Shown: piece by piece, positions 1,752 through 52,409 of the stretch | Layout: each line of letters starts with the position of its first letter | How positions within the stretch are numbered: position 1 is the stretch's first letter | Assembly (NCBI GenBank): GCA_045586015.1 | Contig: JAZMZP010000013.1 | Coordinates: forward strand, 2,374-66,373 | DNA length: 64,000 nucleotides | Direction: 5' to 3' | DNA from: Candidatus Nanosyncoccus sp. | Lineage (GTDB): Bacteria > Patescibacteriota > Saccharimonadia > Saccharimonadales > Saccharimonadaceae | Made by a program: the position numbers and the translations under genes | The notes under the pieces: generated by a model | The model's input: the letters and a program-made list of their open reading frames with translations, nothing else | Databases searched by the model: none | What the model was told of the DNA's origin: nothing

Positions 1752-2879
1752 TTACTCTACCTTCATTATTTTCATCATTCTGTTATTAATAATATCAATC
1801 GTAAACTTTTCTAAACACATTTTATATGATTCGTCACCCATTTTTTGTAATTTATCACGATGTTCAATCATCCAAATCATCTTCTCCGCCAAATCATTTG
1901 CTCTTTTAACTTTTACGAAGAAACCATTCTCGCCTTCTACTATCGTCTCACGACAACCCGGCGTGTTAGTCGTTAAAACCGGTCTTCCCATCGCTAATGC
2001 TTCTAAAATTGTTCTCGGAATCCCCTCCCGATAATAAGTCGGCAAAACAAATACGCTACACTTCGCTACATATTTTTCCACTTCTTTTGTTTCCGGAATA
2101 TACTCGACTACCTTAGCATCAATATACGGTTTTAAAACACTTAAATCTACTGCATTTTTATTTTTATCAATCGCTCCAATATAAGAGAATTTCGCTTCCG
2201 GATATTTTTCTTTCACTATCTTCGCTGCTTTAAAATACTCTATAACCCCTTTCTCTTTTAAAACTCTCGACACCATCAAGAACGCCACCGGGCCATCGGG
2301 TATCTTATTCCGCGAAAACTTCTTCAAATTCACACCCGACCCATTTACTAACTCACACTTCCTCTCGTCGACATAACCTCTTCCGACAAATTCATCAATA
2401 TCATCCTGATTTTGGAAAATAACTTTTGTATTATATTTAAGTGCGTGCTTGTATAATCTACCACCTACAATTCTTAAAACTTTTATTTTTAAAGAATCCG
2501 AACAGAACAACATCCCTAACCCACAAATTAATGAATATATTTCTTTTACTCCCGCCCGCTTTGCCGCCATTGAACCGAAGATGACCGGTTTTATAGTAAA
2601 TGAAAATACTTTATCGGGTTTCTCTTCGCGAATTATTCTCGTTAAATTTTTGTAATACGAAATCACATTGAATACTGATAAAGAATTCTTCTTTAAATTA
2701 ATCAGCCGTACCTTTACGCCATTCTTCTTAAAAAAGTCCTTATTATTATCTTCCGGAACAATAACAACGACATCATACCTTTTTTTTCTAATATCACAAA
2801 TTAAATCCCCACGAAAATTGACGACTGTATCCGTCTTCGGACCAATCATCAAAAACTTCTTCGCAGTTTTTTCATTCAT
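1752..2879 (-). CDS. glycosyltransferase, GT4 family
   Basis: C-terminal YREGIPRTILEALAMGRPVLTTNTPGCRETIVEGENGFFV is a GT4 E-x7-E-type motif. Start moved to the ATG at 2879 (MNEKTAKKF...) because the ORF-track ATG at 2891 lies inside the -10 box. Confidence 0.8.
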   Translation of the reverse strand: MNEKTAKKFLMIGPKTDTVVNFRGDLICDIRKKRYDVVVIVPEDNNKDFFKKNGVKVRLINLKKNSLSVFNVISYYKNLTRIIREEKPDKVFSFTIKPVIFGSMAAKRAGVKEIYSLICGLGMLFCSDSLKIKVLRIVGGRLYKHALKYNTKVIFQNQDDIDEFVGRGYVDERKCELVNGSGVNLKKFSRNKIPDGPVAFLMVSRVLKEKGVIEYFKAAKIVKEKYPEAKFSYIGAIDKNKNAVDLSVLKPYIDAKVVEYIPETKEVEKYVAKCSVFVLPTYYREGIPRTILEALAMGRPVLTTNTPGCRETIVEGENGFFVKVKRANDLAEKMIWMIEHRDKLQKMGDESYKMCLEKFTIDIINNRMMKIMKVE

Positions 2880-2889
2880 TCCACTTATC

Positions 2890-2898
2890 ATTATACCA
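2890..2898 (-). promoter_or_regulatory. extended -10 promoter (TGGTATAAT), 10 nt upstream of the GT start codon
   Basis: Minus strand reads tggtataat-gataagtgga-ATG, so the leader would be only 3-4 nt. Confidence 0.5.
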
Positions 2899-2987
2899 CA
2901 CTAAATAATAATAAAACGCATAAAATAGCCCTGAAATTGCATGCTTTCATATAATAAAAAGAACTGCGTTAAAACGAAAAGAACTCG

Positions 2988-3016
2988 TTGACAATCCTTA
3001 TCTTAATATATATAAT
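2988..3016 (+). promoter_or_regulatory. consensus sigma70-type promoter TTGACA-17-TATAAT
   Basis: ttgaca (2988-2993), 17-nt spacer, tataat (3011-3016). No ORF follows. Confidence 0.6.
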
Positions 3017-3022
3017 AAAGTC

Positions 3023-3096
3023 ATAAGGAATATAGCGTTAGGAACTATATTCCGTGGGTTTTGGTTCTAGTCGGTCTTACCGACTAGAATTTTTTC
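3023..3096 (+). ncRNA. candidate ~74-nt small RNA (promoter + two hairpins + intrinsic terminator)
   Basis: Perfect 9-bp hairpin ggaatatag/ctatattcc (3027-3035 and 3045-3053). A 10-bp terminator stem ttctagtcgg/ccgactagaa follows, then a T-run. No ATG-initiated ORF in the transcript. Confidence 0.4.
3065..3096 (+). terminator. intrinsic terminator
   Basis: 10-bp perfect stem, 5-nt loop, then TTTTTT (3090-3095). Confidence 0.65.
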
Positions 3097-3351
3097 TTCG
3101 GCTTCCTCGCCGTAATGAGAGCTTTACAGTAATCTGAATCCGCCATAACGAAAACTTCATACTCATCTTTCTCCTTTCCGAACTTCTGGCACGCCTAACA
3201 TAGCTGTTTAATGAAGCTCCACACCCGCACGAGTATTTATGGTATACTCCCGCCGTCTTTAATCAAACCCACTAAACACCGAAGCCAACCCGAACGCATC
3301 TAAACATATCATATTCAAAATTTCAACCCCCACTTTAAGCTAGTGGCTATT

Positions 3352-9165: not shown

Positions 9166-9174
9166 TGCTATAAT
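9166..9174 (+). promoter_or_regulatory. extended -10 promoter (TGCTATAAT) for the 9229 gene
   Basis: tgctataat-aaactt-ATG; the ATG (9181) opens only a 6-codon mini-ORF (MLRLYS*, 9181-9201) ahead of the real gene. Confidence 0.45.
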
Positions 9175-9228
9175 AAACTTATGCTAAGATTATATAGCTA
9201 AAATATATAAAGGGCGAGAATAGTAAAA

Positions 9229-10845
9229 ATGGGAAAATCAACGATAACATTATTTAGTTTAACAGGCTTAACTCTTCTTTCTGGTCTTATCTTATCTTCC
9301 TCTCGCGTTTCCGCTGACAACTCCGTTATTGACGAAGTCAACATCGTAGTCCCAGTTTCTTGTAGTCTTTCTGGTGTCGGTATGACCTCGCATAATACTA
9401 GTATTAATAACGGCACTTACGCTTCTGATATTGGTACTACTGCTCTGAAAGCTTCGTGTAACGACTTAAACGGTTTTGCTATCTATGCTGCCGGCTATAC
9501 CGGCGATGAGGTAGGCGGAACTGATAGTACTAAACTAGTCGGAGAAAATGATATAGGTAACATCTTAACCGGAACCGGAACTAGCGGTAACTCCCAATGG
9601 GCAATGAAACTGGCTACTGACTCTAACGCTACTTATCCAATTACCATAGAATCAGACGCTAACGGCTCCTTCGCCTCTTATCATATTGTTCCAGAAGACT
9701 TTGTTAAAGTCGCTTCAAGAAACTCTAGTACCGATATCGGCTCGGCTTCTATCGGCGCAGTTCTAACTACGACTTACCAAGTCTACATCTCCGCCACCCA
9801 ACCCGCCGGAACCTACTCAGGCAAGGTTATTTATGCTTTAGTCCACCCAGCTAACCACTCCGCCCCAGTCATTTGTAATGAAAATGCCACTACTATTTCA
9901 GAAGTCAAATGTATGCAGGATTTCGCAACTGTTTCTAGCACCAACCGAACTGCTATTGTCAACTCTATGACTTTAGGACAGCAATACACTCTAAAAGATA
10001 AACGCGATGGAAAAACTTATACTGTCGCTAAACTCGCTGATGGGAATGTCTGGATGACACAGAACTTAGACTTAAATCTAGATTCTGGAACTACTTATAC
10101 TAATTTAGATACTGATATTGGTTATAATACAAGTACCGGAACTTATGATACAGCGGCTTGGAGTCCGACTCGTTCTACTTATGCTACTACTCTTGATGAT
10201 CTTCATGCATGGTGTCAGGGTGGAATTTGGGATTCGGAGAATTATACTTGTACAGATAATACTATTCCTGAATCATACGATGCAGGGGACTTGTATTGGA
10301 ATGGCACTCCTTGGCCTTTAAACCAGGCAGATTGTATCTCAGCGAATGGGGTTTGGGATGATGATTGGTGTAGTGGCGTTGTTGTATCTGGTTCTACTGG
10401 TATTGCGCAGTATCACTTAGGTAATTATTATAACTGGGCGGCAGCGCTCGCGACTAATGATAGCTCGGTGTTTGGCGCCCAGAATCAGAATGAAATAGTC
10501 GAACAATCTATTTGCCCAGTCGGTTGGACTTTGCCAAGGAGTCATGGAAGCGTAGATACATTCCAGGGCCTTTGGGAGGCATATGGATATGATGATGAAG
10601 ATGGGATTGCTAATGTTTCGACTTTATGGTCTAATCCGCTTTATATGCCTCCGAGCGGGTATTATGTGGGTGGCATATATGGGGTTGGGTTTGATGGCAA
10701 TTTTTGGTCAGCGGTTGCTGCTGGGTCGACTGATGCGAGAGCTGCAGCTTTCTATGTTGTCAATTCTACTTATCCGACAAACATTTATGTAAGAGGTAAT
10801 GCTTTTTCTGTGCGTTGCATAGCCCGTCCAGTCGTAAGCGAGTAA
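9229..10845 (+). CDS. secreted surface protein: signal peptide + N-terminal beta-rich module + C-terminal FISUMP (TIGR02145-like) domain
   Basis: Signal peptide MGKSTITLFSLTGLTLLSGLILSSSRVSA. FISUMP motifs KDKRDGKTYTVAKLADGNVWMTQNL, YYNWAAA, CPVGWTLP, FWSA, AFSVRCIARP. Confidence 0.85.
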   Translation: MGKSTITLFSLTGLTLLSGLILSSSRVSADNSVIDEVNIVVPVSCSLSGVGMTSHNTSINNGTYASDIGTTALKASCNDLNGFAIYAAGYTGDEVGGTDSTKLVGENDIGNILTGTGTSGNSQWAMKLATDSNATYPITIESDANGSFASYHIVPEDFVKVASRNSSTDIGSASIGAVLTTTYQVYISATQPAGTYSGKVIYALVHPANHSAPVICNENATTISEVKCMQDFATVSSTNRTAIVNSMTLGQQYTLKDKRDGKTYTVAKLADGNVWMTQNLDLNLDSGTTYTNLDTDIGYNTSTGTYDTAAWSPTRSTYATTLDDLHAWCQGGIWDSENYTCTDNTIPESYDAGDLYWNGTPWPLNQADCISANGVWDDDWCSGVVVSGSTGIAQYHLGNYYNWAAALATNDSSVFGAQNQNEIVEQSICPVGWTLPRSHGSVDTFQGLWEAYGYDDEDGIANVSTLWSNPLYMPPSGYYVGGIYGVGFDGNFWSAVAAGSTDARAAAFYVVNSTYPTNIYVRGNAFSVRCIARPVVSE

Positions 10846-11719: not shown

Positions 11720-12331
11720 TTACTTTTCTCCTCTCTCAAACGGCATTCCGAAAAGTTCTAACAACTTTAGACTTCCTTCCTTTGAACCATTTTTAATTAT
11801 AAACGTTATCTCGAGGCCGTGAAGAACTGATGCATCCTCGAAAGTAATCTCCGGGAACACAGTTTGTTCTTTAAGCCCTAAATTGTAATTTCCTTGTGCG
11901 TCGAAAGCTTTTCTCGAGACGCCGTGGAAATCACGTACGCGCGGTAAAGCTACGTTGATTAATCTATCGACAAATTCATACATTTTATCGTTTCTTAAAG
12001 TCACGAGATAGCCAACCGGCGCACCCATTCCCTTACGAATTTTAAAGGTCGCAATCGACTTTTTCGCGAGTCTCGAAGTCGGTGCTTGACCGGTAATTTT
12101 CGCCAGTGTCAAAGCAACTGTTTCGGTGAACTTCTTATCTTCGCGTTTTTTACCGACACCAGACGAAACTACAACTTTCTTTAGTTCCGGAACTTGGTTG
12201 ATATTTCCTAATCCGAGTTCTTTTTCTAATTTCGCCTTCAACTCTTTGTTATAGAGCTCTTTAAGACGTGGTTGTGCTTTCGCTACAGACTTTTTCGCTG
12301 TAGTTTTGGCAGCCGTTTTCTTTTCCGCCAT
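11720..12331 (-). CDS. rplE: 50S ribosomal protein L5 (Lys/Ala-rich N-terminal extension)
   Basis: [10 protein letters not shown]...[35 protein letters not shown]; operon position. Confidence 0.93.
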
Positions 12332-12648
12332 TATTTAGCTCCTTTCTTATCTTTCTTATCTTTTTTGTCGGCTTTTTTATCGACCTTCTTGTCAATTTTT
12401 TTCACAGCAGGCTTCACAAATTTTGCCGCTTCGACTAACTTCAAATTCGATAAATCAATTCCAACGTGAATCGTTTTCTTGCCGCCAGCCGGATTTAGGT
12501 AAGACTTTCGCATATGTCGCTCAACCAAACCAATTCCATCTAGCATTGCTTTGTGATTTTCGCGATCGATTTTCACGATTTTAGCTTCTTTTCCTTTGTT
12601 ATCGCCGGAAATTACTAAAACTTTGTCACCAATTTTCAGACTTTTCAT
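12331..12648 (-). CDS. rplX: 50S ribosomal protein L24 (Lys-rich C-terminal tail)
   Basis: KIGDKVLVISGDNKGKEAKIVKI KOW motif; operon position. Confidence 0.92.
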   Translation of the reverse strand: MKSLKIGDKVLVISGDNKGKEAKIVKIDRENHKAMLDGIGLVERHMRKSYLNPAGGKKTIHVGIDLSNLKLVEAAKFVKPAVKKIDKKVDKKADKKDKKDKKGAK

Positions 12649-12649
12649 T

Positions 12650-13018
12650 TTAGAGTACCTCCGGAGCTAAGCTAATAATCTTCGTAAAGCCGGCGTCACG
12701 TAATTCTCTCGGGATTGGTCCGAAGACACGCGTTCCGCGCGGGGTTTTATCTTCGTTTACCAAAACTGCCGCGTTTTCGTCGAAACGAATGGTCGAACCA
12801 TCTGGGCGACGAATCGGTTGAACCGTGCGTACGATTACTGCCTTTACGACAGCTTTCTTCTTTACGCCACCAGTCGGAGAAGCATCCTTGACCGAACAAG
12901 TTACGATATCGCCGACCCGAGCATATCTCGCTCGCGTTCCGCCGAGCACACGGATTACTCCGAGTTCCTTCGCGCCGGAATTATCCGCGACTTTTAATCT
13001 AGTTTCCTGTTGTATCAT
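12650..13018 (-). CDS. rplN: 50S ribosomal protein L14
   Basis: [18 protein letters not shown]...[10 protein letters not shown]. Confidence 0.96.
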
Positions 13019-13377
13019 TATTCTTCCTCCCCTTCTGTGTATTTCCGGAATGCTCTTTTAGCTTTAGCTTCCGCATCAGCGCCGACCTTTTTCTCTTCCT
13101 TGACCGCGACTACATCGTCTTTAAGCTCAACGGTTCCACGCGACTTCTCAATAATCTTGACTAAGCTGTAAGCTTTCGTCTTCGAAATCGGGCGAACCAT
13201 CTTAATTTCTACACGATCTCCGACTTTTGCCTCATTCTTTTCATCGTGAGCAGTATATTTACGGGTCTTCGTGTATTGCTTTCGATAAAGCGGATGCGTT
13301 TCACGTGAAACGATGGAGACCGTAATGGTCTTATCACGCTTATCGGAGGTTACTGTACCTATGAGTGTGTGTGCCAT
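13018..13377 (-). CDS. rpsQ: 30S ribosomal protein S17 with ~35-aa acidic/Lys C-terminal extension
   Basis: [42 protein letters not shown]...VGDRVEI. Abuts the rplP stop, so there is no room for rpmC. Confidence 0.92.
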
Positions 13378-13378
13378 C

Positions 13379-13798
13379 CTAGAACTCCTCTTTCTTAATT
13401 ATTTTACATTTTACCGGTAACTTGTGAGAAGCTAGCCTTAAAGCTTCTTTAGCTTGTTCGTCAGTTACGTCCGCGATTTCAAACATGACTGTTCCGGCTT
13501 TTACTTTTGCCACAAAGAATTGCGGTTCGCCTTTACCGGAACCCATTTTCACATCAAGCGGTTTCTTCGTGACCGGCGTATGCGGGAAAATCCGAATCCA
13601 GATTTTACCACCACGCTTTATATAACGCGTAATCGCTTGACGAGCTGCCTCGATTTGACGCGAATTGATGCGTTCGTTATCGAGTGACATTAAACCATAG
13701 TCACCAAACGCGACTGTATTACAACGAGTTGCAACGCCTTCGTTTTTACCTTTGCGTACCTTGCGGTGTGCAGTTTTTCTTGGAAGTAAAATAGCCAT
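13379..13798 (-). CDS. rplP: 50S ribosomal protein L16
   Basis: MAILLPRKTAHRKVRKGK...AARQAITRYIKRGGKIWIRIFP. Confidence 0.96.
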   Translation of the reverse strand: MAILLPRKTAHRKVRKGKNEGVATRCNTVAFGDYGLMSLDNERINSRQIEAARQAITRYIKRGGKIWIRIFPHTPVTKKPLDVKMGSGKGEPQFFVAKVKAGTVMFEIADVTDEQAKEALRLASHKLPVKCKIIKKEEF

Positions 13799-13799
13799 C

Positions 13800-14426
13800 T
13801 TATTTCTCCCCCTTATAAATCCAGACCTTTACTCCTACGATACCAGCAATCGTCGGTGCGTGATGACAATAAAAGTCAATATCCGCACGAAGCGTATGTA
13901 GAGGAACTGAACCCTCAATAAACTTTTCACGGCGACTCATTTCTGCGCCATTAAGACGCCCAGCAACTTCGATGCGCACACCTTTAGCTCCGGCGTTCAT
14001 CGTCGATTGCAAAGCCATCTTAACCGCTCGGCGGAAATTCATACGCTTGCCGAGTTGGAAACCGACATTTTCTGCTACTAATTTAGCGTTTAATTCCGGT
14101 TTCTTGACTTCTTCGACATTAATTCGAATCGGTCCTTCGACAATCTTTTCTAATTCTTTCTTTAATTCATTAATACCGGCGCCCTGCTTACCAATTACAG
14201 CACCCGCCTTTGCGGTCAAAATTGTAATTGTCGTAAGATTAGCGGAGCGTTCGATATTAACGCGCGCAATCGTCGGGCGAGCCTTAAATCGCTCTTCGAT
14301 CGTCTTGCGAATCTTATCGTCCTCAACTAGCCAGCGACGAAAATCTGATTTTCTCGTAAACCATTTCGAGGACCAGTCCTTACTGACTTGGAGACGGTAA
14401 GAGATGGGATTAACTTTCTGACCCAT
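13800..14426 (-). CDS. rpsC: 30S ribosomal protein S3
   Basis: MGQKVNPISYRL...KH domain GAVIGKQGAGINELKKEL. Confidence 0.96.
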   Translation of the reverse strand: MGQKVNPISYRLQVSKDWSSKWFTRKSDFRRWLVEDDKIRKTIEERFKARPTIARVNIERSANLTTITILTAKAGAVIGKQGAGINELKKELEKIVEGPIRINVEEVKKPELNAKLVAENVGFQLGKRMNFRRAVKMALQSTMNAGAKGVRIEVAGRLNGAEMSRREKFIEGSVPLHTLRADIDFYCHHAPTIAGIVGVKVWIYKGEK

Positions 14427-14427
14427 A

Positions 14428-14799
14428 TTACTTTTTCTCCTTCTTTACTTTTTCTTCGCCGGCGACCTCGACGAAAATATTACTACTAATCTTCTCAAAC
14501 GGTAAAGCGCGACCACGGGACGCCGGTTTGTATCGGCGCATTCTCGTACCGCTAGTTACCGAGATTCTTGAGATTCTCACTGTTTTCGGGTCAATACTAA
14601 CTTTCGAATTATTAAGTAAGTTAGCATTCGCCGATTCGACCGCTTTCAATACTGCTCGAGCTGCGCGTCGAGGGGTATTCTCTAAAATCACTACTGCGTC
14701 TTGGACATAGCGATCGCGTACTAAACTCGCCACGATGCTAGTTTTGCGCGGCATCGAATCGATACCTTTTTCATATGCGTGGGCAAAATGAGTAGCCAT
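14428..14799 (-). CDS. rplV: 50S ribosomal protein L22
   Basis: Operon position; MPRKTSIVASLVRDRYVQDAVVILENTPRRAA. Confidence 0.92.
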   Translation of the reverse strand: MATHFAHAYEKGIDSMPRKTSIVASLVRDRYVQDAVVILENTPRRAARAVLKAVESANANLLNNSKVSIDPKTVRISRISVTSGTRMRRYKPASRGRALPFEKISSNIFVEVAGEEKVKKEKK

Positions 14800-15092
14800 T
14801 AGTTACCCCCTTTCGCCGCTGCGGCTTCCGCAGCTTTCTTACCACCGTGTCGTTTAAACTTACGAGTTGGTGCAAATTCCCCTAATTTATGACCAACCAT
14901 ATTTTCCGAAATATAAACTGGAACGTGGACTTTACCGTTATGAACGGCAATCGTTCGCCCGACCATTTCCGGAGAAATTGTCGATTGTCTCGCCCAGGTT
15001 TTAATCACCGTACGGTCCTCAGAAGAGAGCGCGGCAACTTTCTTAGCGAGTTTATAGTCTACAAACGGACCTTTTTTAAGACTCCTAGACAT
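14799..15092 (-). CDS. rpsS: 30S ribosomal protein S19
   Basis: [12 protein letters not shown]...[31 protein letters not shown]. Confidence 0.96.
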
Positions 15093-15928
15093 TATTTCCT
15101 CTTTCCTTCGTGACGACTACGCACGATCATTTTATTAGTTTTCTTATTATGACGAGTACGATAACCTAAGGTTAATTGACCCCAAGGCGTTCTCGGCGCC
15201 TTACCCGAACCGTGACGACCGCCATCACCACCACCGTGCGGGTGATCCGTCGCGTTCATTACAACACCTCTTACTGTCGGGCGAATGCCTTTACGACGAC
15301 GTCGTCCAGCCGCACCGACCTTAATGTTTTGGTGTTGCAAATTCGAAACTGTACCAATCGAAGCCTCACAGCTCGAAAGTACTTTGCGAACCTCGCCAGA
15401 TGGCATCTTCAAGGTTGCGTACCCATCTTCTTTTGCCATCAACTGTGCCGAAGCGCCAGCTGCACGTACCATTTGTGCACCTTTGCCCGGAGTTAATTCA
15501 ACTGCATATACAAATGTACCAACCGGGATATTTTCGAGCGGCATTCTCGAAGAATCTTCAACTTCAATTTCCTTACCAGTCTTAAAAGTCGAACCCTTAG
15601 TCATTTTAGTATCTGCGAGTACATAATAATATGTACCGTTTTGATCCTTTACGCGAGCAATTCTTGCGCTACGATTTGGATCGTATTCAATTTCTTCAAC
15701 CGTAAATACCGAATCCTTCGGCAAATTATAGGTCATAATTCGGTAGTGTCGTTTAACACCACCACCACGGTGTCTAACCGTGATTCGGCCTTGGTTATTC
15801 TTACCGGCCTGTTGTTTCTTCGCCTTCGTTAACGATTTGAGCGGCTTCTTCGTCGTAATCTGATCGTAATCTTCGGTCGTCTTTTGACGTTGCGCCGGCG
15901 TAATCGGGCGGTATGCTTTAATTGCCAT
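15092..15928 (-). CDS. rplB: 50S ribosomal protein L2
   Basis: [18 protein letters not shown]...; 278 aa. Confidence 0.97.
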
Positions 15929-16299
15929 TACTTGTCTCCCTTCTTAGCTGACTTTGCTGGCTTTTTAGTATTATCCTCTTTTTCTGGCTCATCGAATACC
16001 TTAATCGAATCACCCTTCTTTAATCTTACATATGCAAATTTCTTATCTTGGCGATGAGTAATGCCCGGATAAGCGTGTTTGCCTTTACTGAATTTCGTTT
16101 TCTTACCTTTTCTGGTCAAAGTTCTTACATCGGTTACCGTAACTTTAAATTCTTCTTCAATCATTTTCGCAATAGCTTGTTTCGAAGCCGATTTCTTTAC
16201 CGGGAAAACATAAATTCGGTTAGTTTGTTCTAAATAACTTTTCTCAGTCGCCCGCGGCTCTAAGAGATTTAATTTAATGTCGCTTTTAACTTCCGCCAT
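15928..16299 (-). CDS. rplW: 50S ribosomal protein L23 (extended Lys-rich C-terminus)
   Basis: Operon position; RATEKSYLEQTNRIYVFPVKKSASKQAIAKMIEEEFKVTV. Confidence 0.9.
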   Translation of the reverse strand: MAEVKSDIKLNLLEPRATEKSYLEQTNRIYVFPVKKSASKQAIAKMIEEEFKVTVTDVRTLTRKGKKTKFSKGKHAYPGITHRQDKKFAYVRLKKGDSIKVFDEPEKEDNTKKPAKSAKKGDK

Positions 16300-16300
16300 C

Positions 16301-16897: not shown

Positions 16898-16898
16898 A

Positions 16899-18734: not shown

Positions 18735-18740
18735 AGGAAA

Positions 18741-34061: not shown

Positions 34062-34068
34062 ACCAAAT

Positions 34069-34117: not shown

Positions 34118-34155
34118 AAGCGTAAGAATTATTTTTAAATAAAAAAGGAAGTTAT

Positions 34156-36852: not shown

Positions 36853-36858
36853 AAATAT

Positions 36859-36867
36859 ATTATAACA
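36859..36867 (-). promoter_or_regulatory. extended -10 (TGTTATAAT) exactly 6 nt upstream of the cysteine desulfurase ATG (leaderless architecture)
   Basis: Minus strand reads tgttataat-atattt-ATGatt. Confidence 0.6.
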
Positions 36868-36919: not shown

Positions 36920-36928
36920 TGTTATAAT
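36920..36928 (+). promoter_or_regulatory. extended -10 (TGTTATAAT) for the DUF1846 gene (leadered, with SD)
   Basis: tgttataat followed by an 18-nt leader containing AAGGAGG, then the ATG at 36947. Confidence 0.55.
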
Positions 36929-36946
36929 TTTGTAAAAGGAGGTTTC

Positions 36947-38410: not shown

Positions 38411-38761
38411 ATCATCCTGAATCAAAACTAAGTTCCCATCGTCAATCCGATATTCGTATTCATCATTTAGCGTATATAGCCAATCCGTCTCGATTTTCAA
38501 CTTCCCGTCCTCAATCGCCCAGATGAAGTCATAGCTATTTTCATTATTATTGGTCGTTAATTTCCCTTTCCCTATCTCAGAAAAAGTCCAAATCACGCTC
38601 GGCTCGTCTTCTTTTACCCAGCTATCCACCGAAATTAAATATTCCCCGTCCTGAAGCGAAGCGCCCTTATTTAGATTAAGAACTAAAAAAATCACGCCGA
38701 TAACAAGCGTAATTAATCCGATAATAAAAACAATAATTGAGATAATTTGCTTCTTCTTCAT
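38330..38761 (-). CDS. hypothetical membrane-anchored protein (143 aa)
   Basis: N-terminal TM helix IISIIVFIIGLITLVIGVIFLVL. The last 27 codons overlap the convergent DUF1846 3' end. Confidence 0.6.
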   Translation of the reverse strand: MKKKQIISIIVFIIGLITLVIGVIFLVLNLNKGASLQDGEYLISVDSWVKEDEPSVIWTFSEIGKGKLTTNNNENSYDFIWAIEDGKLKIETDWLYTLNDEYEYRIDDGNLVLIQDDSTEIKFNPTSSVDSEIREDDELIVGD

Positions 38762-38770
38762 ACCCCCATT

Positions 38771-39154
38771 TTAGCAATAGAGTTTTGATTTTACAAGTTC
38801 AAGATAGCTTTTTGCCGCTTGGCGGAAATTATCGAGCTCCTCTCCCTCGATTTTTACATAAGAACTACCAGCCACTTTTTTATAAACTCCATTTGGCCTA
38901 ACTTCATAACGAATAGTCATATCTTGAAGTTTTCCAAAAGTATCCGACCAATCTTCGTGCCAGAACCAGACATTTCCTTTATGCTTGAAAAATTCCCGGT
39001 TATGACCGTCAGGCACCGGTCCAAAAATCGTCTTCCCGAGCTCAGATTCGGCATTAATTAAGTCCTCATAACTTAATTTATTTGAATATGGGACTTTTGG
39101 AAGTAAATCGTTTCCGATATTAGTAATTGATTTTAACAGTTTCTTGAGCGACAT
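38771..39154 (-). CDS. hypothetical protein (127 aa)
   Basis: GAGGAG 8 nt upstream of the ATG. No recognisable motif. Confidence 0.65.
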   Translation of the reverse strand: MSLKKLLKSITNIGNDLLPKVPYSNKLSYEDLINAESELGKTIFGPVPDGHNREFFKHKGNVWFWHEDWSDTFGKLQDMTIRYEVRPNGVYKKVAGSSYVKIEGEELDNFRQAAKSYLELVKSKLYC

Positions 39155-39279
39155 TGTTCAATCTCCTCATTTATTGCATTTAATTCTTCGTAAATCTTCT
39201 TATCTTCGTCTTTAGCCTCAAAATTATAGGCCTCATCGCCCATTAGGGGTATTCTGAAAAGTTGATTCTCCCTTTCCAT
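39133..39279 (-). CDS. candidate leaderless small ORF (48 aa, acidic), below the ORF-track size cut-off
   Basis: MERENQLFRIPLMGDEAYNFEAKDEDKKIYEELNAINEEIEQCRSRNC. Its ATG is exactly 6 nt after TGATATAAT. Its 3' end overlaps the SD and start of the next gene. Confidence 0.4.
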   Translation of the reverse strand: MERENQLFRIPLMGDEAYNFEAKDEDKKIYEELNAINEEIEQCRSRNC

Positions 39280-39285
39280 ACCCTA

Positions 39286-39294
39286 ATTATATCA
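39286..39294 (-). promoter_or_regulatory. extended -10 (TGATATAAT) whose TGA is the tatD stop codon
   Basis: Minus strand reads tgatataat-tagggt-ATGgaa. Confidence 0.5.
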
Positions 39295-40041
39295 CGAAAC
39301 GCTTGAAAAGTCAACCCCAAACAGGTCAAAAACGTTATCTGTAGTGGTTTTTGCCACCTCTTTAACAGATATCTCTAATTTTTCCGCTAACCACTTCGCA
39401 ATATCGGCAATATATGCCGGCTCATTAGTTTCGCCTCGATGCGGAGTCGGCGCCAAAAATGGCGCATCAGTCTCGAGGAGAATTCTCTCAAGTGGCGGGG
39501 TTGGCAAAGTTGAATAAGTCGCAAGCCCGTTCACCCCGACATAAAAATCAGTTTCATTCAAAATCCGCTTTAGGACCTTTTTGCTGTCCGTAAAAGAATG
39601 CACCACACCACGTACCTTCGGAAAATTGCTCACCACCGCAAAAAAGTCCGAGAAAGCTTCTCTGACGTGGAACGAAACCGGCAAACCATTATCAATCGCC
39701 ATCTGCAACATTTCCTCGAATAACTTAATCTGCGCCTCTCGGTCATAACCCTCATAATGATAATCTAGTCCCACTTCCCCGATAGCTACAAGTTTATCTC
39801 GCTCGGGGGCACGCCCCGAGTAAGACAAACTTGTAGCTTGTTCGGGGTGAATGCCATAGGTCCAATAAACATTATCGTGGGAATTAGCGAAATCGCGCGC
39901 AGCTAACGAATCTTCGTGCGATGTCCCGATGCAGATAATCTTCTCGACGCCTCTTTTTTTAGCTCGTTTAATCATCTCTTCGGCTTGTTTCGCCGTAAAA
40001 AACTCTCGGTCGTGGAGATGACAATGCGAATCAATTAGCAC
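39292..40041 (-). CDS. tatD: TatD family metal-dependent DNase/hydrolase
   Basis: [26 protein letters not shown]..., LLETDAPFL motifs. Overlaps the typA 3' end by 11 nt. Confidence 0.92.
   Translation of the reverse strand: MLIDSHCHLHDREFFTAKQAEEMIKRAKKRGVEKIICIGTSHEDSLAARDFANSHDNVYWTYGIHPEQATSLSYSGRAPERDKLVAIGEVGLDYHYEGYDREAQIKLFEEMLQMAIDNGLPVSFHVREAFSDFFAVVSNFPKVRGVVHSFTDSKKVLKRILNETDFYVGVNGLATYSTLPTPPLERILLETDAPFLAPTPHRGETNEPAYIADIAKWLAEKLEISVKEVAKTTTDNVFDLFGVDFSSVS
39784..39838. repeat. 55-nt nested hairpin inside the tatD coding sequence
   Basis: agctacaagttt-atctcg-ctcgggg-gcacg-ccccgag-taagac-aaacttgtagct, with a perfect 12-bp outer stem and a perfect 7-bp inner stem. Confidence 0.6.
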
Positions 40042-41848
40042 GATTTTCTCGCTTCCTTTTAATCGGATCGAGCTGACGCTTGCGAAGTCTTAAAGATTTT
40101 GGCGTCACTTCAAGCAATTCATCATCTAATAGAAAATCTAAACACTGCTCTAGCGATAACTGCGTATAAGGCGTCAATTGTATCGCACCATCTGACGCGT
40201 GTGTCCGCATATTCGTTAATTGCTTCTCGCGACAAATATTAATATCGATATCATCTTTTTTATTCGAAAGCCCGATAATCATACCGTGATAAACCGGCAC
40301 TCCAGGCGGAATAAACAAAATCCCGCGTGCTTGCGCCGCGTCTAATGCATAAGCCGTCGAAACCCCGTCCTCGAACGCGACCAAAGCTCCATTTCTTTCC
40401 GGCTTATATCTTTCTTCAACCGGCCGATATCCGCTCGGAATCGATGACATAATTACCGTGCCTTTCGTTTCGGTCAATAAATTATTCCGAAGCCCGATTA
40501 ATGCTGCCGTTGAAATTTCATACACAAATCGCGTCGTTCCGGAGCTCGTAATTTCTTGTGATGTTAACTCAGCTTTTCTGATGCCGAGTTCTTGGCTAAC
40601 TGCTCCGACAAATTCCGGCGCGACTTCAATCGTCAAATCTTCAATCGGCTCGCACTTCTCCCCGTCAATTTCTCGGTAAACTACTTCCGGTCGCCCGACT
40701 TCGAGTTCATAACCCTCGCGTCGCATCGTTTCGATTAAAACCGACAAATGTAGTTCGCCTCGTCCCGAAACTTTATAGCCTAACCCATCCGGTTCGATTT
40801 TCAACGCGATATTCGTTTCGAGCTCTCGCTCTAGTCTTTCCGCAATTTGGCGTGAAGTCGTAAAATCGCCTTCACGTCCCTTTAATGGCGAGGTGTTTGG
40901 CCCGATATAAATTGAAAGCGTCGGCGCTTCGAGCTCAATCCCCGGCAAAGCCTCCGGATTATCGCCAGTTGCAATCGTGTCGCCAATATTTGCTTCCGAA
41001 ACTCCCGTAATCGCGACAATATCCCCCGCAATCGCCTCCGGCACCTCTTCCTTTCCTAGTCCTTTGTAAATAAATAAATTATCAATCTTACTGTTTTTTA
41101 TTTCATTATTATGTAAAATCTTTACACTTTGGTTTTTCTTTAATTTACCACTAAAAATTTTACCAATACAATACTTGCCAAGATAATTATCGCCCGCGAG
41201 CGCCGCAACGAGAAGTTGCGCCGACTCTGCGTCGGAATCAACCGAAGGCGCCGGAATATCGTTAATAATTGATTCAAAAATTACGTGTAAATCATCATCA
41301 AGCTCGGTCGTTTTTCCCGCTCGGCCTTCCCTAGCGATTGCATAATAAACCGGATAGAACAATTGTGACTCATCCGTTGCGAGTTCTAAAAACAAACTTT
41401 CAATTTCTGATAAAACTTCCGGGATGCGTGCCGCCGGTTTATCAATTTTATTAATCACTACCACCGGTTTTAATCCTAAACTGAGAGCCTTCGATAAAAC
41501 GAACTTCGTTTGTGGCATCGGCCCTTCCTGCGCATCGACGATAAGTAGAACTCCATCCGCCATATTCAAAGTCCGCTCGACCTCGCCCGAAAAATCCGCG
41601 TGTCCCGGCGTATCGATAATATTAATCTTATAACCATCATAATAAACACAAGTTTGCTTTGCCGTAATCGTAATACCTCGCTCGTGTTCCTGATCCATCG
41701 AATCCATAATTAAAGTCTGATTCATTTCAGCTTGATTATCGCGAAAAGTACGCGACTGCTTCAAAAGCCCATCGACTAAAGTCGTTTTTCCGTGATCAAC
41801 GTGTGCAATAATCGCCACGTTCCGAATTAAATCTTTGTTTGAAACCAT
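40031..41848 (-). CDS. typA: translational GTPase TypA/BipA
   Basis: [31 protein letters not shown]; 605 aa. Confidence 0.93.
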
Positions 41849-41854
41849 CCATAT

Positions 41855-41863
41855 ATTATAACA
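41855..41863 (-). promoter_or_regulatory. extended -10 (TGTTATAAT) exactly 6 nt upstream of the typA ATG (leaderless architecture)
   Basis: Minus strand reads tgttataat-atatgg-ATGgtt. Confidence 0.6.
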
Positions 41864-43596: not shown

Positions 43597-43605
43597 TGGT
43601 ATAAT
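43597..43605 (+). promoter_or_regulatory. extended -10 (TGGTATAAT) 10 nt upstream of the dCMP deaminase ATG
   Basis: tggtataat-aatagtcact-ATGagc, so the leader would be only 3-4 nt with no SD. Confidence 0.5.
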
Positions 43606-43615
43606 AATAGTCACT

Positions 43616-44161
43616 ATGAGCAAACAAACTGAATGGGACGAGTATTTTATGAACATCGCCGAAGCAGTCGCGGCGAAGTCAAAAGATCCCTCGAGTAAAA
43701 TGGGCTGCGTGATTGTCGACAAAAATAAACGCGTAGTTTCGTTAGGTTATAACGGCTTAATCCAAGGCGCCGACGAATCAAAAATGACTCTTAGTGAGCG
43801 CCCGATGAAATATTATTTCGCCATTCATTCCGAAATGAACGCCTTAATTTTCGCTCATCAAGATTTAACCGGTTGCACGATTTACAATCGTGTTGCAACT
43901 TGCGAAAACTGTTTGAAATATTGTCTCCAAGCCGGCATCAAACGCTTTGTCTACCGAGATTTACGCGTCCATTCCCATTCAACCGACCCAAAAAAATCGA
44001 TGACCAATATCGATACTGACGAAGCCGTCGTGCGTTTGCTTGTTTCGATGCCTGAAGTCGAAACCCTGAATCTTACAAACGGTAAAACCTATGTCGAAGA
44101 CATTTTAGATTCTTACGAAAAAGAATCAGAAGAATACAACCGCCTAAAAAGATGGATCTAA
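43616..44161 (+). CDS. dCMP/CMP deaminase family (ComEB-like) zinc enzyme
   Basis: WDEYFMNIA..., HSEMNAL (HxE) and CENCLKY (CxxC) zinc ligands. Confidence 0.85.
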   Translation: MSKQTEWDEYFMNIAEAVAAKSKDPSSKMGCVIVDKNKRVVSLGYNGLIQGADESKMTLSERPMKYYFAIHSEMNALIFAHQDLTGCTIYNRVATCENCLKYCLQAGIKRFVYRDLRVHSHSTDPKKSMTNIDTDEAVVRLLVSMPEVETLNLTNGKTYVEDILDSYEKESEEYNRLKRWI

Positions 44162-44251: not shown

Positions 44252-44899
44252 TTACCATTCGATTGGTTTTAGGTTGTTTTTTTCCAAGAAAGCATTGGTT
44301 TTAGAAAATGGTTTACTCCCAAAAAACCCAGCGTAAGCCGAAAGTGGCGACGGATGCGCTGATTCTAGAATTAAATGCTTCGAACTATCAATGAGTGATT
44401 TTTTATTTCTCGCGTCACGCCCCCAAAGAATAAACACTAAATGCGGACGCGTTTCATTTAAATATTTAATTACTTCTGTCGTAAAAATCTCCCAACCTCT
44501 TCCGCTATGCGATTTTGGTTTGTGTGCTTCTACTGTCAAAACTGTATTTAATAATAAAACTCCTTGTTTTTGCCATTTTCTTAAACTTCCCCGCGGATTT
44601 TCGTGATGCCCGATATCCGAATCGATTTCCTTATATATATTAATTAAGGACGGTGGTATTGGTTCCGAATTTGGCACCGAAAATGCGAGCCCCATCGCCG
44701 CTCCCGGCGTATGATAAGGATCTTGCCCCAAAATTACTACCTTTACTTCGTTTAAATCAGTCGTAAAAGCCGAAAAAACTAACTCTTTTTTAGGAAAAAT
44801 CGTTTTTGTTTCATATTCAGTGTGCAGGAACTCGGACAATTCTTTAAAATATGGCTTCTTGAACTCGCTTTTTAAAAACGGCTTCCAACTCTCATGCAT
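44252..44899 (-). CDS. ung: uracil-DNA glycosylase, family 1
   Basis: GQDPYH and HPSPLS motifs. Start at MHESWKPFL. Confidence 0.93.
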   Translation of the reverse strand: MHESWKPFLKSEFKKPYFKELSEFLHTEYETKTIFPKKELVFSAFTTDLNEVKVVILGQDPYHTPGAAMGLAFSVPNSEPIPPSLINIYKEIDSDIGHHENPRGSLRKWQKQGVLLLNTVLTVEAHKPKSHSGRGWEIFTTEVIKYLNETRPHLVFILWGRDARNKKSLIDSSKHLILESAHPSPLSAYAGFFGSKPFSKTNAFLEKNNLKPIEW

Positions 44900-44916
44900 G
44901 CTATAATTATAGCATG
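44897..44916. promoter_or_regulatory. perfect 20-bp palindrome CATGCTATAATTATAGCATG holding both start codons and overlapping TGCTATAAT boxes of divergent ung and tdk
   Basis: Each strand reads TGCTATAAT-tatagc-ATG. The -10 boxes are 44902-44907 (+) and 44906-44911 (-). Confidence 0.7.
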
Positions 44917-50702: not shown

Positions 50703-51808
50703 TATTGTTCTCGTGCTTTTTCTATATTTGGATATTCATCAATTAAAACTCTAATACAGCCCGCAATCGGAATCGCAACAATCGCGCCAAGCAGACCAAA
50801 CATATACATACCGATTGTAATGGCGCATAAAATTGTTACCGGTTTTAGGTTTAACGCATCACCTTGTATCTTTGGCGAAATCACATTGTTCTCAATTTGT
50901 GCATATATTATATATATGATTGCAAAAACTAACGCTGCGACTGGATTCGAGAAGAATAACAGAATTGTCACTAAAGTTCCGCCGATAAATTGTCCAAACA
51001 TCGGAATTAAATAGAATAACATTGTGGTCATACCCATTGGAATCGCAAGACTCGGTGAAAAACCGAGAATCAACGACAAAATGAAAACGATAGTCATTGA
51101 AGCACACCCATCAATAATTGCTACTACGACTTGTCTAGAAACGTAGGTCGAAATCACATTTGCCATTTTCATTACAACTTCTTTCGCAACTTTGACTGGT
51201 TTCTTGTCTTCACCGACACCTAATGTTCTCCATAAAGTCTCCATCATTTCCGGACCATCCAACAAGAAGAGTAAAGTCAAAATCAAAACTAAAATTATTT
51301 TCATTATCACATCCGCAACTCCCCCTACACTAGAAACGATATTATTACCAAGTAGTCCCAGCATGCTATTCGATAAGTTCATCAAGGTGTTATTGATCTC
51401 TGAGTGTAAATCATCAATCCCTATATTCTTCCCGAAGTTGTTAACTCCATCCCATCCCCCAAAGGATTTTTCAAATGTTTCAGGGAAATTTTGGACAAAT
51501 TTTGCTGTTTCATTCACGACGACCGGACCAACAATCGCGATAATCGCGCCAATCACTAATACTACAATCAAATAAGCAAAGATTGCCGAAAGAGTACGGT
51601 GTTTTTTGTCGTTGCCAAAATGTTTCGAAAAGAAATTGTTCACTTTTCGGACCAGTGGTTTTAGGGCCAAAGCTAGGAAGATCGAGATACCGATAATAAC
51701 TAGCCCAGTTATCGCTTTATATAAAAACAATAAAACTACCGCAATAATTAACGGTACCAACCAAAACTTAATGAAAGTCTTCCAATCGGTTTCGATTTTT
51801 TTAGACAT
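50702..51808 (-). CDS. AI-2E family transporter (PerM/UPF0118)
   Basis: Polytopic; ...YAQIENNVISPKIQGDALNLKPV...IPIAG... matches the family consensus. Confidence 0.8.
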   Translation of the reverse strand: MSKKIETDWKTFIKFWLVPLIIAVVLLFLYKAITGLVIIGISIFLALALKPLVRKVNNFFSKHFGNDKKHRTLSAIFAYLIVVLVIGAIIAIVGPVVVNETAKFVQNFPETFEKSFGGWDGVNNFGKNIGIDDLHSEINNTLMNLSNSMLGLLGNNIVSSVGGVADVIMKIILVLILTLLFLLDGPEMMETLWRTLGVGEDKKPVKVAKEVVMKMANVISTYVSRQVVVAIIDGCASMTIVFILSLILGFSPSLAIPMGMTTMLFYLIPMFGQFIGGTLVTILLFFSNPVAALVFAIIYIIYAQIENNVISPKIQGDALNLKPVTILCAITIGMYMFGLLGAIVAIPIAGCIRVLIDEYPNIEKAREQ

Positions 51809-51827
51809 ACACCTCCTTTATAGACTT

Positions 51828-51836
51828 ATTTTATCA
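51828..51836 (-). promoter_or_regulatory. extended -10 (TGATAAAAT) for the AI-2E / UPF0104 / ABC operon
   Basis: Minus strand reads tgataaaat followed by a leader with AAGGAGGTG. Confidence 0.5.
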
Positions 51837-51840
51837 CAAA

Positions 51841-51849
51841 TGTTATAAT
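51841..51849 (+). promoter_or_regulatory. extended -10 (TGTTATAAT) 8 nt upstream of the queH ATG
   Basis: tgttataat-tctgacaa-ATGaaa; no SD. Confidence 0.5.
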
Positions 51850-51857
51850 TCTGACAA

Positions 51858-52409
51858 ATGAAAGTTTTAATGCATACGTGTTGTGCGCCTTGCAGCGTTT
51901 ACTGTATTGATGCCTTACGTTCGGAAGATATCGAACCGACGCTTTTTTGGTATAATCCAAACATTCATCCTTACATTGAATATAAAACTCGTCGCGATTG
52001 TCTAAAAGATTATGCAAAACAGGTCGGAGTCGAATTAATTCTAAAAGAAGAATATGGACTTGATGAATTTTGTAAAAATGTCGTGAATGACATTAGTAAT
52101 CGATGCGTGAACTATTGTTATCCTAAGCGCTTAGGTGAAACCGTGCGCTACGCTTTAGAAAACGGCTACGATGCTTTTACGACAACATTACTCGTCTCGC
52201 CTTATCAGAAACATGAAGAACTAAAGAAAGTTTGCGAAAAACTAGCGAAAGATTCAGGCATTGAATTTCTCTATCGCGATTTCCGAGTTGGTTTCCGCGA
52301 TGGCCAAGCGAAGGCTCGCGAACTCGGGCTCTATCTTCAGAAATATTGTGGTTGTATTTTTTCCGAAGAAGAACGCTACGAGAAACAGATTAAACGCGAT
52401 TTAGAATAG
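51858..52409 (+). CDS. queH: epoxyqueuosine reductase QueH (DUF208)
   Basis: LMHTCCAPCS N-terminal cysteine cluster and C-terminal YCGCIFSE. Confidence 0.85.
   Translation: MKVLMHTCCAPCSVYCIDALRSEDIEPTLFWYNPNIHPYIEYKTRRDCLKDYAKQVGVELILKEEYGLDEFCKNVVNDISNRCVNYCYPKRLGETVRYALENGYDAFTTTLLVSPYQKHEELKKVCEKLAKDSGIEFLYRDFRVGFRDGQAKARELGLYLQKYCGCIFSEEERYEKQIKRDLE

Follow-up and report, generated by a model that had tools for sequence, protein, structure and literature searches.

Gene starts and promoter elements in the window

The window, a stretch of 64,000 nucleotides from Candidatus Nanosyncoccus sp. (contig JAZMZP010000013.1), carries a box of the consensus ttaTGnTATAAT at a short distance upstream of many start codons. 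The DNA belongs to an ultrasmall parasitic bacterium of the Saccharibacteria (TM7), and its nearest matches are Nanosyncoccus-like gut MAGs. Spacing is given as Nx, for x nucleotides between box and ATG. An earlier note on this DNA had listed nine genes with the box at N6; all nine were recovered at their positions and are genuine, but two further N6 sites, those of the DUF5640 gene and of a 6-codon ORF, had been overlooked. The sites that it placed at N7 (serS), N8 (queH) and N10 (glycosyltransferase operon and dCMP deaminase) were likewise correct in position and spacing. Gene names were confirmed by Pfam, and release factor RF2 was identified by its SPF motif. TGn is present at all sites in the window.

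Sites at N6:
9166-9183, plus strand: TGCTATAAT (9166-9174), N6, ATG at 9181 of a 6-codon ORF (MLRLYS-stop)
18732-18776, minus strand: prfB (RF2; PCRF and RF-1 domains, SPF motif); terminator hairpin 18776-18755, T-run, TGTTATAAT (18749-18741), N6, ATG at 18734
24510-24556, minus strand: island gene G (437 aa); terminator hairpin 24556-24536, T-run, TGTTAGAAT (24527-24519), N6, ATG at 24512
25429-25486, plus strand: dus (Pfam Dus from residue 14); terminator hairpin 25429-25448, TGTTATAAT (25469-25477), N6, ATG at 25484
27045-27091, plus strand: murD-like Mur ligase gene; terminator hairpin 27045-27069, TTTG, TGTTATAAT (27074-27082), N6, ATG at 27089
36850-36867, minus strand: cysteine desulfurase (class-V aminotransferase) gene; TGTTATAAT (36859-36867), N6, ATG at 36852
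38759-38776, minus strand: DUF5640 protein gene; TGCTAAAAT (38768-38776), N6, ATG at 38761
39133-39314, minus strand: 48-codon sORF; TGATATAAT (39294-39286), N6, ATG at 39279
41846-41863, minus strand: typA/bipA; TGTTATAAT (41855-41863), N6, ATG at 41848
44897-44916, both strands: ung (minus) and tdk (plus); perfect 20-bp palindrome CATGCTATAATTATAGCATG

Sites at N7 to N10:
2877-2898, minus strand: glycosyltransferase (GT) operon (Pfam Glycos_transf_1); TGGTATAAT (2898-2890), N10, ATG at 2879-2877
34059-34077, minus strand: serS (Pfam Seryl_tRNA_N from residue 1); TGGTATAAT, N7, ATG
43597-43618, plus strand: dCMP deaminase gene (Pfam); TGGTATAAT, N10, ATG
51841-51860, plus strand: queH (Pfam); TGTTATAAT, N8, ATG

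Contrasting Shine-Dalgarno (SD) starts:
11720-17519, minus strand: ribosomal-protein operon, internal genes all led by GGAGG
36920-36949, plus strand: DUF1846 gene; TGTTATAAT at N18, AGGAGG in the leader

At four sites (prfB, G, murD and dus) the box begins 4-20 nt after the end of an intrinsic terminator, and the 46-nt intergenic gap at prfB is wholly occupied by terminator, box and spacer. The cysteine desulfurase gene is the first of an operon with an mnmA-like gene, the DUF5640 box overlaps the 3' end of the gene upstream, and the queH box lies back to back with the promoter (51836-51828, minus strand) of an SD-led AI-2E transporter gene. The 48-codon sORF has a full promoter, with TTGACT (39314-39309) 17 bp from the box; it overlaps the start of the gene at 38771-39154, and the TG of its box belongs to the tatD stop codon. 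The 6-codon ORF stands at the 5' end of a 54-nt leader of the gene at 9229-10845. For gene G, neither a Pfam hit nor an orthologue in the loci fetched was found.

The earlier note had set these genes against ribosomal-protein genes and most island genes, with GGAGG-type SDs, and the contrast is genuine: every internal gene of the ribosomal-protein operon has such a sequence 5-12 nt upstream and none has the box.

Frequency of the motif at gene starts

In the window, TGNTANAAT-N6-ATG was matched 11 times against 0.28 expected from dinucleotide-preserving shuffles, none of 100 of which reached 11; the geometry is indeed, as had been claimed, too regular for chance. The box by itself was found 41 times (14.2 +/- 3.9 expected), and although non-coding DNA makes up 4.7% of the window it holds 27 of the 41. 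Comparison of gene starts with shuffled and intragenic controls, which the earlier note had proposed, found the geometry at the starts of genes but not at ATGs within them. Of the 50 long ORFs in the window, 10 have a box at N6-9 before their first ATG, and of the 295 in-frame ATGs further inside none has one (Fisher p = 2e-9); the corresponding counts for the box are 89/312 and 1/1764 in close relatives, and 56/812 and 2/4763 in distant Saccharibacteria. The box thus stands before 20-29% of long-ORF first ATGs in the window and its close relatives and 7% in distant Saccharibacteria, as against less than 0.1% of internal ATGs. The geometry occurs at 22-35% of genes in every Saccharibacteria subgroup, and about one quarter of the genes in the window have it, essential housekeeping genes included.

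Spacing was examined in 2.25 Mb of Saccharibacteria DNA, in which 1291 boxes were searched for an ORF-opening ATG downstream. Counts were 219 at N6, 105 at N7, 50 at N8, 43 at N9 and 26 at N10; every spacing from N0 to N5 had 1-7 sites, and every spacing from N11 to N17 had 3-9. The peak at N6 is sharp, with a hard edge between N5 and N6. A 50-kb control from E. coli was flat, without an N6 peak. Box-to-start distances are bimodal, with a peak at N6-11 (422 sites), a trough at N12-17 (20 sites) and a shoulder at N18-35; an SD-like 4-mer at -16 to -4 is present in 6 of the 422 sites of the peak versus about 60% at N18-26, and the shoulder as a whole has an SD at about 60% of its sites. The short-spacing (leaderless) type accounts for 58% of ORF-followed boxes. 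In this genome about one quarter of genes and about half of recognisable promoters have a -10 box 6-10 bases before the start codon.

Position in the operon and promoter anatomy

SD and leaderless-type starts coexist, in line with the two initiation modes that the earlier note had suspected, and they divide by operon position. Where co-directional genes are 16-40 bp apart, 53% of starts are of the leaderless type; for divergent gaps of <=60 bp its share is 51% (SD 7%), but at gaps of <=15 bp it falls to 11% versus 50% for SD. The box is depleted at operon-internal, tightly coupled genes, where GGAGG is used. Predicted folding energy of +1 to +40 did not differ between the start classes.

A logo of the N6 class, for which only TANNNT was required, returned T-15 in 66%, G-14 in 60%, TATAAT, and a pyrimidine at -1 in 74%; the -35 region retained only TT at -35/-34 (48% and 46%). 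These features are those of a promoter and lie in the correct register; a TG at -15/-14, together with a -35 element that is weak or missing, is what defines an extended -10 promoter. The same box also occurs 18-104 nt upstream of SD-led genes.

Conservation of the geometry and of the start codons

The geometry is kept at orthologous starts while spacer and flanks diverge, the outcome of a second check that the earlier note had put forward. At typA, the box stands at N6-9 in 22 of 22 close-clade orthologues, whose spacers have diverged. The box was also found at N6-8 in 24/24 prfB orthologues, at N6-9 in 8/8 serS orthologues, at N6-10 in 63/77 for dus, and at N6-9 in 14/21 for cysteine desulfurase; murD orthologues have the geometry in 20 of 25 cases (19 at N6, one at N11). 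For the DUF5640 gene it is kept in three relatives (L005, L007 and L008). The sORF motif ...EEIE.CR.RN(C/S)-stop is conserved in eight relatives, five of which have the box at N6 or N7. From one orthologue to another the spacing varies between N6 and N9, and dCMP deaminase orthologues range from N6-N9 to a GGAGG-bearing leader of about 20 nt.

Pfam models begin at residue 1 (SerRS), 3 (TK and QueH), 8 (TypA) and 14 (Dus), and orthologue conservation begins at residue 1-3 (MIYLDHAAAT, MHESWKPFL, MAKLYFRYGA, MKIALLGYGK and MLDVKFIREN), the first of these being conserved from residue 1 in the cysteine desulfurases. Nine of 14 genes have no in-frame start codon upstream of the proposed ATG, and public NCBI gene calls place the starts at these ATGs. 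Start codons at N6-9 were ATG in 203 cases and GTG in 3; this ratio does not discriminate between start classes, since GTG and TTG are rare at the SD-led genes as well.

The ung/tdk palindrome

The divergent start codons of ung and tdk lie 14 bp apart inside the palindrome. A separate TGCTATAAT-N6 precedes each gene, one on either strand, with 2 bp shared between the two hexamers, and the CATG of each start codon provides the TG of the opposite extended -10. The arrangement is kept in five relatives (L001, L003, L004, L006 and L009), in which the spacing on the two sides changes together (N6, N8 or N9). Bidirectional promoters that arise from symmetry of the -10 element have reportedly been described by Warman et al. 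(2021, Nat Microbiol). The ung/tdk element resembles these in that a single palindrome contains two overlapping -10 hexamers, one per strand and facing opposite ways, and it has the sequence required of such a promoter, from which divergent transcription is predicted; it differs in that each transcript would be the leaderless mRNA of a real gene.

Interpretation

The reading preferred here, to which we assign a probability of about 85%, is that the boxes act as extended -10 promoters giving leaderless mRNAs, alongside genes with SDs. They would be sigma-70-type promoters (TRTGnTATAAT) with a weak or absent -35 element, at which RNA polymerase would start about 7 nt after the hexamer; at N6, with a pyrimidine at -1 and A at +1, this would be the A of the ATG. 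From promoter geometry we infer that the transcription start site (TSS) lies there, in which case the transcript would begin with AUG and have neither a 5' UTR nor an SD. Judging by other bacteria, such an mRNA may then be bound directly by way of its 5'-terminal AUG and the initiator tRNA, in 70S/IF2-dependent initiation. The leaderless mode would serve the first genes of many, mostly housekeeping, transcription units, and GGAGG the operon-internal, ribosomal-protein and island genes. Terminator, promoter and start codon could thereby fit within 15-45 bp, which would suit a streamlined genome. Where a terminator is absent, transcripts that run on from the gene upstream could supply leadered isoforms as well.

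The published TSS position centres 7 bp downstream of the -10 element, and the box geometry agrees with it (PMC12641261). The only published TSS set for a Saccharibacterium, that of TM7x, comprises 188 sites from plain RNA-seq and is imprecise; its -10-to-TSS distance is unusually variable, for which its authors blame either the species itself or mapping inaccuracy (PMC12641261).

The motif is A/T-rich and sits where a ribosome-binding site would be, and CPR bS1 proteins are unusual in having 3-4 domains (PMC9297842); the box could on these grounds be a non-SD translation signal, group B-like or an S1 landing site, on leadered mRNAs with promoters further upstream. This is improbable, since such a signal should not be so much rarer than SD before operon-internal genes (11% versus 50%) and peak at first genes, and it would explain neither the TG and TT in promoter register nor the identical box far upstream of SD-led genes. 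Terminators directly upstream also leave no space for a second promoter, and just 14 bp separate the ung and tdk start codons. We consider it still less probable that the box is a promoter but that translation begins further downstream, at an in-frame codon led by a separate SD on a leadered mRNA, the annotated N-termini being too long. Gene G and the DUF5640 protein do lack an N-terminus-anchoring domain, but elsewhere Pfam models and orthologue conservation reach the first residues, and N6 spacing would not stay conserved if the ATG were unused. A chance by-product of A/T-rich intergenic composition is already refuted: the genome has about 42% G+C and its intergenic DNA is richer in A/T, yet the shuffles, the N5 to N6 step, the conservation in orthologues and the flat E. 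coli control all speak against it.

The alternative with most weight concerns the N7-N10 subset alone (serS, queH, dCMP deaminase and the GT operon), which may have leaders of 1-4 nt, or variable starts, instead of no leader. A canonical TSS 7 nt after the hexamer leaves about 3 nt at N10 (PMC12641261), and the GT operon is predicted to be near-leaderless, with a leader of <=3-4 nt. The drift in orthologue spacing and the range seen for dCMP deaminase point the same way. Against this, published transcriptome studies treat leaders of <=5 nt as functionally leaderless, and the number of sites declines steadily from N6 to N10 before dropping abruptly, which fits a flexible discriminator with the TSS held at the A. 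We consider short leaders in this subset somewhat less likely than not.

Relation to known systems

The earlier note knew of no description of leaderless genes for this kind of genome, and the literature searched bears this out: it contains no account for Saccharibacteria or CPR, and no description of Saccharibacteria promoters or translation-initiation modes. Leaderless initiation itself is a well-known class (GeneMarkS-2 group C; Actinobacteria and Deinococcus). The group C -10 element is a loose TANNNT; the Saccharibacteria box matches the extended -10 (TGnTATAAT) almost perfectly and in many cases is joined directly to the T-run of an upstream terminator. E. coli and its elements have single leaderless genes (lambda cI and Tn1721 tetR), rare exceptions in an SD-dominated genome. 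The predicted mRNAs resemble these in their 5'-terminal AUG, lack of an SD and a transcription start set by a sigma-70 promoter; the difference lies in the share of window genes involved. Gram-positive extended -10 (TGn) promoters, which include the TRTG '-16' motif, likewise have TG one base upstream of TATAAT and a weak -35, but here about half of the occurrences stand at one set distance, 6 nt, from a start codon.

In group C genomes the Pribnow box lies 6-8 nt from the start of first operon genes, and 25-50% of transcripts are leaderless while SD-led internal genes coexist (PMC6028130). As in M. tuberculosis, M. smegmatis, C. glutamicum, S. coelicolor and D. deserti, a fixed short -10-to-start distance without SD was found here at first genes, with orthologue conservation and SD-led internal genes; the group B pattern, with the same motif before operon-internal and first genes, was not. 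Unlike those high-G+C Actinobacteria and Deinococcus, these are Saccharibacteria (CPR/Patescibacteria) with genomes of <1 Mb and 42-47% G+C, in which GTG starts are essentially absent and leaderless status is predicted from sequence. In archaeal group D (Haloferax, Sulfolobus), mRNAs that start at or next to the AUG are a major initiation mode (PMC6028130); there a TATA box lies about 26 nt upstream, unlike the bacterial -10 box at 6-10 nt here.

Significance

A far broader reading, which we regard as speculative and rather unlikely, is that leaderless initiation is a principal phylum-wide, possibly CPR-wide ancestral mode of gene expression in these episymbionts, tied to genome compaction (terminator-promoter-AUG modules of <=45 bp, palindromic bidirectional leaderless promoters) and reduced ribosomes, and that the split between leaderless housekeeping and SD ribosomal and island genes forms a global translational control class, for example host-attached versus host-free. 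On the preferred reading itself, abundant leaderless translation would extend beyond Actinobacteria, Deinococcus and archaea into the CPR, where its occurrence would bear on whether the leaderless mode is ancestral, and there would be a concrete reason for intergenic regions as short as 14-46 bp. A simple rule would be available to check gene-start calls in thousands of MAGs. No CPR/Patescibacteria other than Saccharibacteria have, to our knowledge, been both grown in culture and manipulated genetically; if one quarter to one third of Saccharibacteria genes are leaderless, expression cassettes and reporters could be designed as box-N6-ATG without a ribosome-binding site.

Motif counts and spacing

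The window is ~42% G+C and ~95% coding, contains no tRNA genes, and was searched for the extended -10 promoter element (TGnTATAAT type; hereafter the box, with Nx denoting x nt between box and start codon). The pattern TGNTANAAT-N6-ATG gave 11 matches versus a mean of 0.28 in dinucleotide-preserving shuffles, 0 of 100 of which reached 11, in keeping with the view in the earlier note that the arrangement is too regular for chance. All nine N6 sites of that note were recovered where it had placed them, and its coordinates for serS (N7), queH (N8), the glycosyltransferase operon (N10) and dCMP deaminase (N10) were right; its N6 list was, however, incomplete by two sites:

ATG 38761, start of a DUF5640 gene, preceded by TGCTAAAAT
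9166-9201 (+), box-N6-ATG (ATG 9181) opening a 6-codon ORF (MLRLYS*) that is 5'-terminal in the leader (54 nt) of gene 9229-10845

The ORF at 9181 may be a leaderless mini-ORF, a leader peptide or a coincidence. The box alone occurred 41 times (14.2 +/- 3.9 expected). Non-coding DNA, 4.7% of the window, held 27 of the 41, and 14 of these 27 lay N6-N10 from an ATG, the 6-codon ORF being one of them.

The comparison set consisted of the window and 160 loci from relatives (80 GTDB-genome typA loci and 80 metagenome dus loci; 2.25 Mb, with a Saccharibacteria-only typA set). The top matches of TypA, encoded at 40031-41848 (-), were to gut MAGs, ruminant and human, of Candidatus Nanosyncoccus and Saccharibacteria (91% identity), and the 80 retained typA loci were all on Saccharibacteria-type contigs (TypA identity 61-91%). 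Genes in the related loci were called as the longest ORF from its first ATG, a simple heuristic that makes the percentages given here approximate. The set contained 1291 boxes.

Spacing between box and ATG in 2.25 Mb (counting ATGs that open ORFs of >=60 codons)
Spacing; sites
N0-5; 1-7 per spacing
N6; 219
N7; 105
N8; 50
N9; 43
N10; 26
N11-17; 3-9 per spacing

Followed to larger spacings, the counts were bimodal, with a sharp peak at N6-11 (422 sites, of which just 6 had a Shine-Dalgarno (SD)-like 4-mer), a trough at N12-17 (20 sites) and a broad shoulder from N18 on, where ~60% of sites had an SD. The N6 peak was absent from a 50-kb E. coli control. When gene starts were compared with controls, as the earlier note had proposed, the peak was found at gene starts and nearly vanished at internal ATGs. 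When the hexamer was relaxed and N6-10 allowed, each Saccharibacteria subgroup had 22-35% of its genes in this class, versus 1-2% of internal ATGs.

Box at N6-9 before the first ATG of long ORFs and before internal in-frame ATGs
Set; first; internal; Fisher p
Window; 10/50; 0/295; 2e-9
Close relatives; 89/312; 1/1764; 3e-77
Distant Saccharibacteria; 56/812; 2/4763; 3e-45

Promoter anatomy and operon position

The register was checked by demanding only TANNNT at N6 and then tallying the flanking positions. In the N6 class, position -15 was T in 66% of sites and position -14 was G in 60%, the hexamer read TATAAT, -1 was a pyrimidine in 74%, +1 was A, and -35/-34 were TT in 48% and 46%; these positions show the anatomy of a promoter in the correct register. 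An identical box lies 18-104 nt 5' of SD-led genes in the window:

36920-36928, followed by AGGAGG and ATG 36947
23185-23193
32442-32450, before secA
51828-51836

The alternative to a promoter signal, a non-SD ribosome-binding motif, is separated from it by dependence on operon position (PMC6028130). Genes with the leaderless-type geometry and genes of the SD type differed in this respect.

Upstream gaps by initiation type
Gap; leaderless type; SD type
Co-directional, 16-40 bp; 53%; 25%
Divergent, <=60 bp; 51%; 7%
<=15 bp (operon-internal); 11%; 50%

At four genes, namely prfB, murD, dus and gene G of the 19-25 kb island, a strong intrinsic terminator ends 4-20 nt 5' of the box. At prfB the 46-nt intergenic gap is fully used by terminator, T-run, box and 6 nt. 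The divergent start codons of ung and tdk are 14 bp apart at 44897-44916, a perfect 20-bp palindrome (CATGCTATAATTATAGCATG) with two overlapping extended -10 boxes, the TG of each promoter being provided by the CATG of the opposite start codon. This layout is kept in five relatives, and the spacings of the two genes shift together (N6, N8 or N9). The prfB gap and the ung/tdk layout leave no space for a leader, unless the promoter is inside a neighbouring gene. Predicted folding energy over +1 to +40 (-3.6 kcal/mol for the leaderless type versus -3.7 for the SD type) did not differ and supports neither side.

GGAGG is used in the window by ribosomal-protein, secA, transporter and island genes, and the leaderless-type set is mostly housekeeping (RF2, TypA, SerRS, Dus, QueH, Mur ligase, IscS-like enzyme, nucleotide salvage/repair genes). 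The coexistence of two apparent initiation modes suggested earlier, with ribosomal-protein and island genes GGAGG-led, was supported, and the split follows operon position. Pfam confirmed the names Dus, Mur ligase, class-V aminotransferase, TypA, UDG, thymidine kinase, SerRS, QueH and dCMP deaminase. Rfam gave 0 matches over the whole window at gathering thresholds, and known cis-regulatory RNAs account for none of the leadered or leaderless starts.

Position of the start codon

In 9 of 14 genes no in-frame ATG, GTG or TTG precedes the box-proximal ATG before a stop codon is reached; in the remaining genes any such candidate falls within the box or within the T-run of the terminator. Pfam models start at residue 1 (SerRS), 3 (TK and QueH), 8 (TypA) and 14 (Dus), and orthologous proteins are conserved from residues 1-3 on. 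Mis-annotation of dus, murD and ung, for which longer TTG ORFs exist, was considered and rejected, since public NCBI gene calls place the starts of these genes at the box-proximal ATG. Start codons at N6-9 were near-exclusively ATG; this is no test of leaderless AUG dependence, as GTG and TTG are avoided by the SD-led genes here as well. The dus orthologues in two related loci (L082 and L092) have GTG in place of ATG, exactly N6 after TGTTATAAT (VNIWDNLPKP), and occasional leaderless GTG starts may therefore occur.

The release factor gene, prfB (17664-18734 (-); RF2, SPF motif), is one unbroken ORF without the programmed +1 frameshift present in many bacteria.

Conservation in related loci

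The earlier note had also proposed comparing orthologous starts, and these keep the geometry while spacer and flanks diverge.

Box retention at orthologous starts
Gene; box kept; spacing
typA (clade of >=77% identity); 22/22; N6-9
prfB; 24/24; N6-8
dus; 63/77; N6-10 (N6 in 35)
murD; 19/25; N6 (plus one at N11)
serS; 8/8; N6-9
cysteine desulfurase; 14/21; N6-9
ung; 8/11
tdk; 4/4

Leaders can be both gained and lost. The dCMP deaminase gene has N10 in the window, N6-N9 in three relatives, and a ~20-nt leader with GGAGG in most others. In distant Saccharibacteria (L029-L080) typA is not leaderless and has a conserved structured leader of 30-35 nt, within the ~45 nt upstream of the gene (e.g. L032:9940-9985, L054:9940-9985), in the order TGnTAtAAT, ~7 nt, AAGGAAG, GC hairpin, (A/T)TATTTTT, ATG. 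The hairpin stems vary by lineage (GGTCTG/CAGACC, CCCG/CGGG, GTCCG/CGGAC), and base pairing is possible between purine tract and U-run, which makes the element, directly before the start codon, resemble an attenuator/terminator or a hairpin that sequesters or positions the SD. RNAalifold returned no consensus for these leaders because the variable hairpins cannot be aligned by MAFFT; hairpins were present in single-sequence folds.

Small genes and additional promoters

The following features were noted in the window:

39133-39279 (-), 48-codon sORF
34109-34363 (+), unlisted small gene for a 68-aa protein (N-terminus rich in Lys, C-terminus hydrophobic) with its own TGCTAAAAT promoter and AAGGAAG SD, divergent from the serS promoter
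35830-35858 (-), 12/12 consensus promoter plus TG within the cysteine desulfurase ORF, 241 nt 5' of the overlapping mnmA-like gene
19181-19209, 22070-22098, 22117-22145, 24874-24902 and 24920-24948, full-consensus island promoters

The 48-codon sORF is a genuine small protein gene under conservation: frame and C-terminal motif, EEIE.CR.RN(C/S)*, are kept in eight relatives, five of which have the box at N6/N7. The TG of its promoter belongs to the tatD stop codon. The SD lies in its last codons, which also overlap the start codon of the following gene (38771-39154); translational coupling of the two is therefore probable. The site at 35830-35858 may be an internal promoter or a small-RNA start. 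The five island promoters are near-identical (TTGAC(T/A)-N17-TGnTA(T/A)AAT), lie clustered in the 19-25 kb island and are each followed by a leader with GGAGG, a pattern that points to a mobile or phage-like element having a strong promoter type of its own.

Proposed mechanism and relation to known systems

The best-supported reading is that the boxes are extended -10 promoters with a predicted transcription start at the A of the ATG, yielding leaderless mRNAs. As a general rule the transcription start is centred 7 bp 3' of the -10 element (PMC12641261). RNA polymerase at an extended -10 box would start the transcript on the A of the ATG, the resulting mRNA would be leaderless, and its 5'-terminal AUG would be directly recognised by the ribosome and initiator tRNA. 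Such recognition is established in E. coli, mycobacteria and Deinococcus. The N7-N10 cases may carry leaders of 1-4 nt.

The literature searched on Saccharibacteria, Patescibacteria, CPR, TM7 and Nanosynbacter yielded no description of leaderless genes, and the earlier note likewise had known of none. Promoters, UTRs and leaderless mRNAs are unmentioned in the TM7x transcriptome preprint, and leaderless genes are not discussed in a 2024 PNAS perspective or a 2023 Cell genetics paper; a CPR ribosome study treats shortened bS1 and anti-SD loss in some Parcubacteria, not leaderless genes (PMC9297842). In group C genomes, an organisation known in Actinobacteria and Deinococcus-Thermus, a Pribnow box is found 6-8 nt away from the start, and leaderless mRNAs make up 25-50% of transcripts (PMC6028130). 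The geometry in the window, a box a short distance before the start, is the same. The finding is solid and useful and its mechanism unsurprising.
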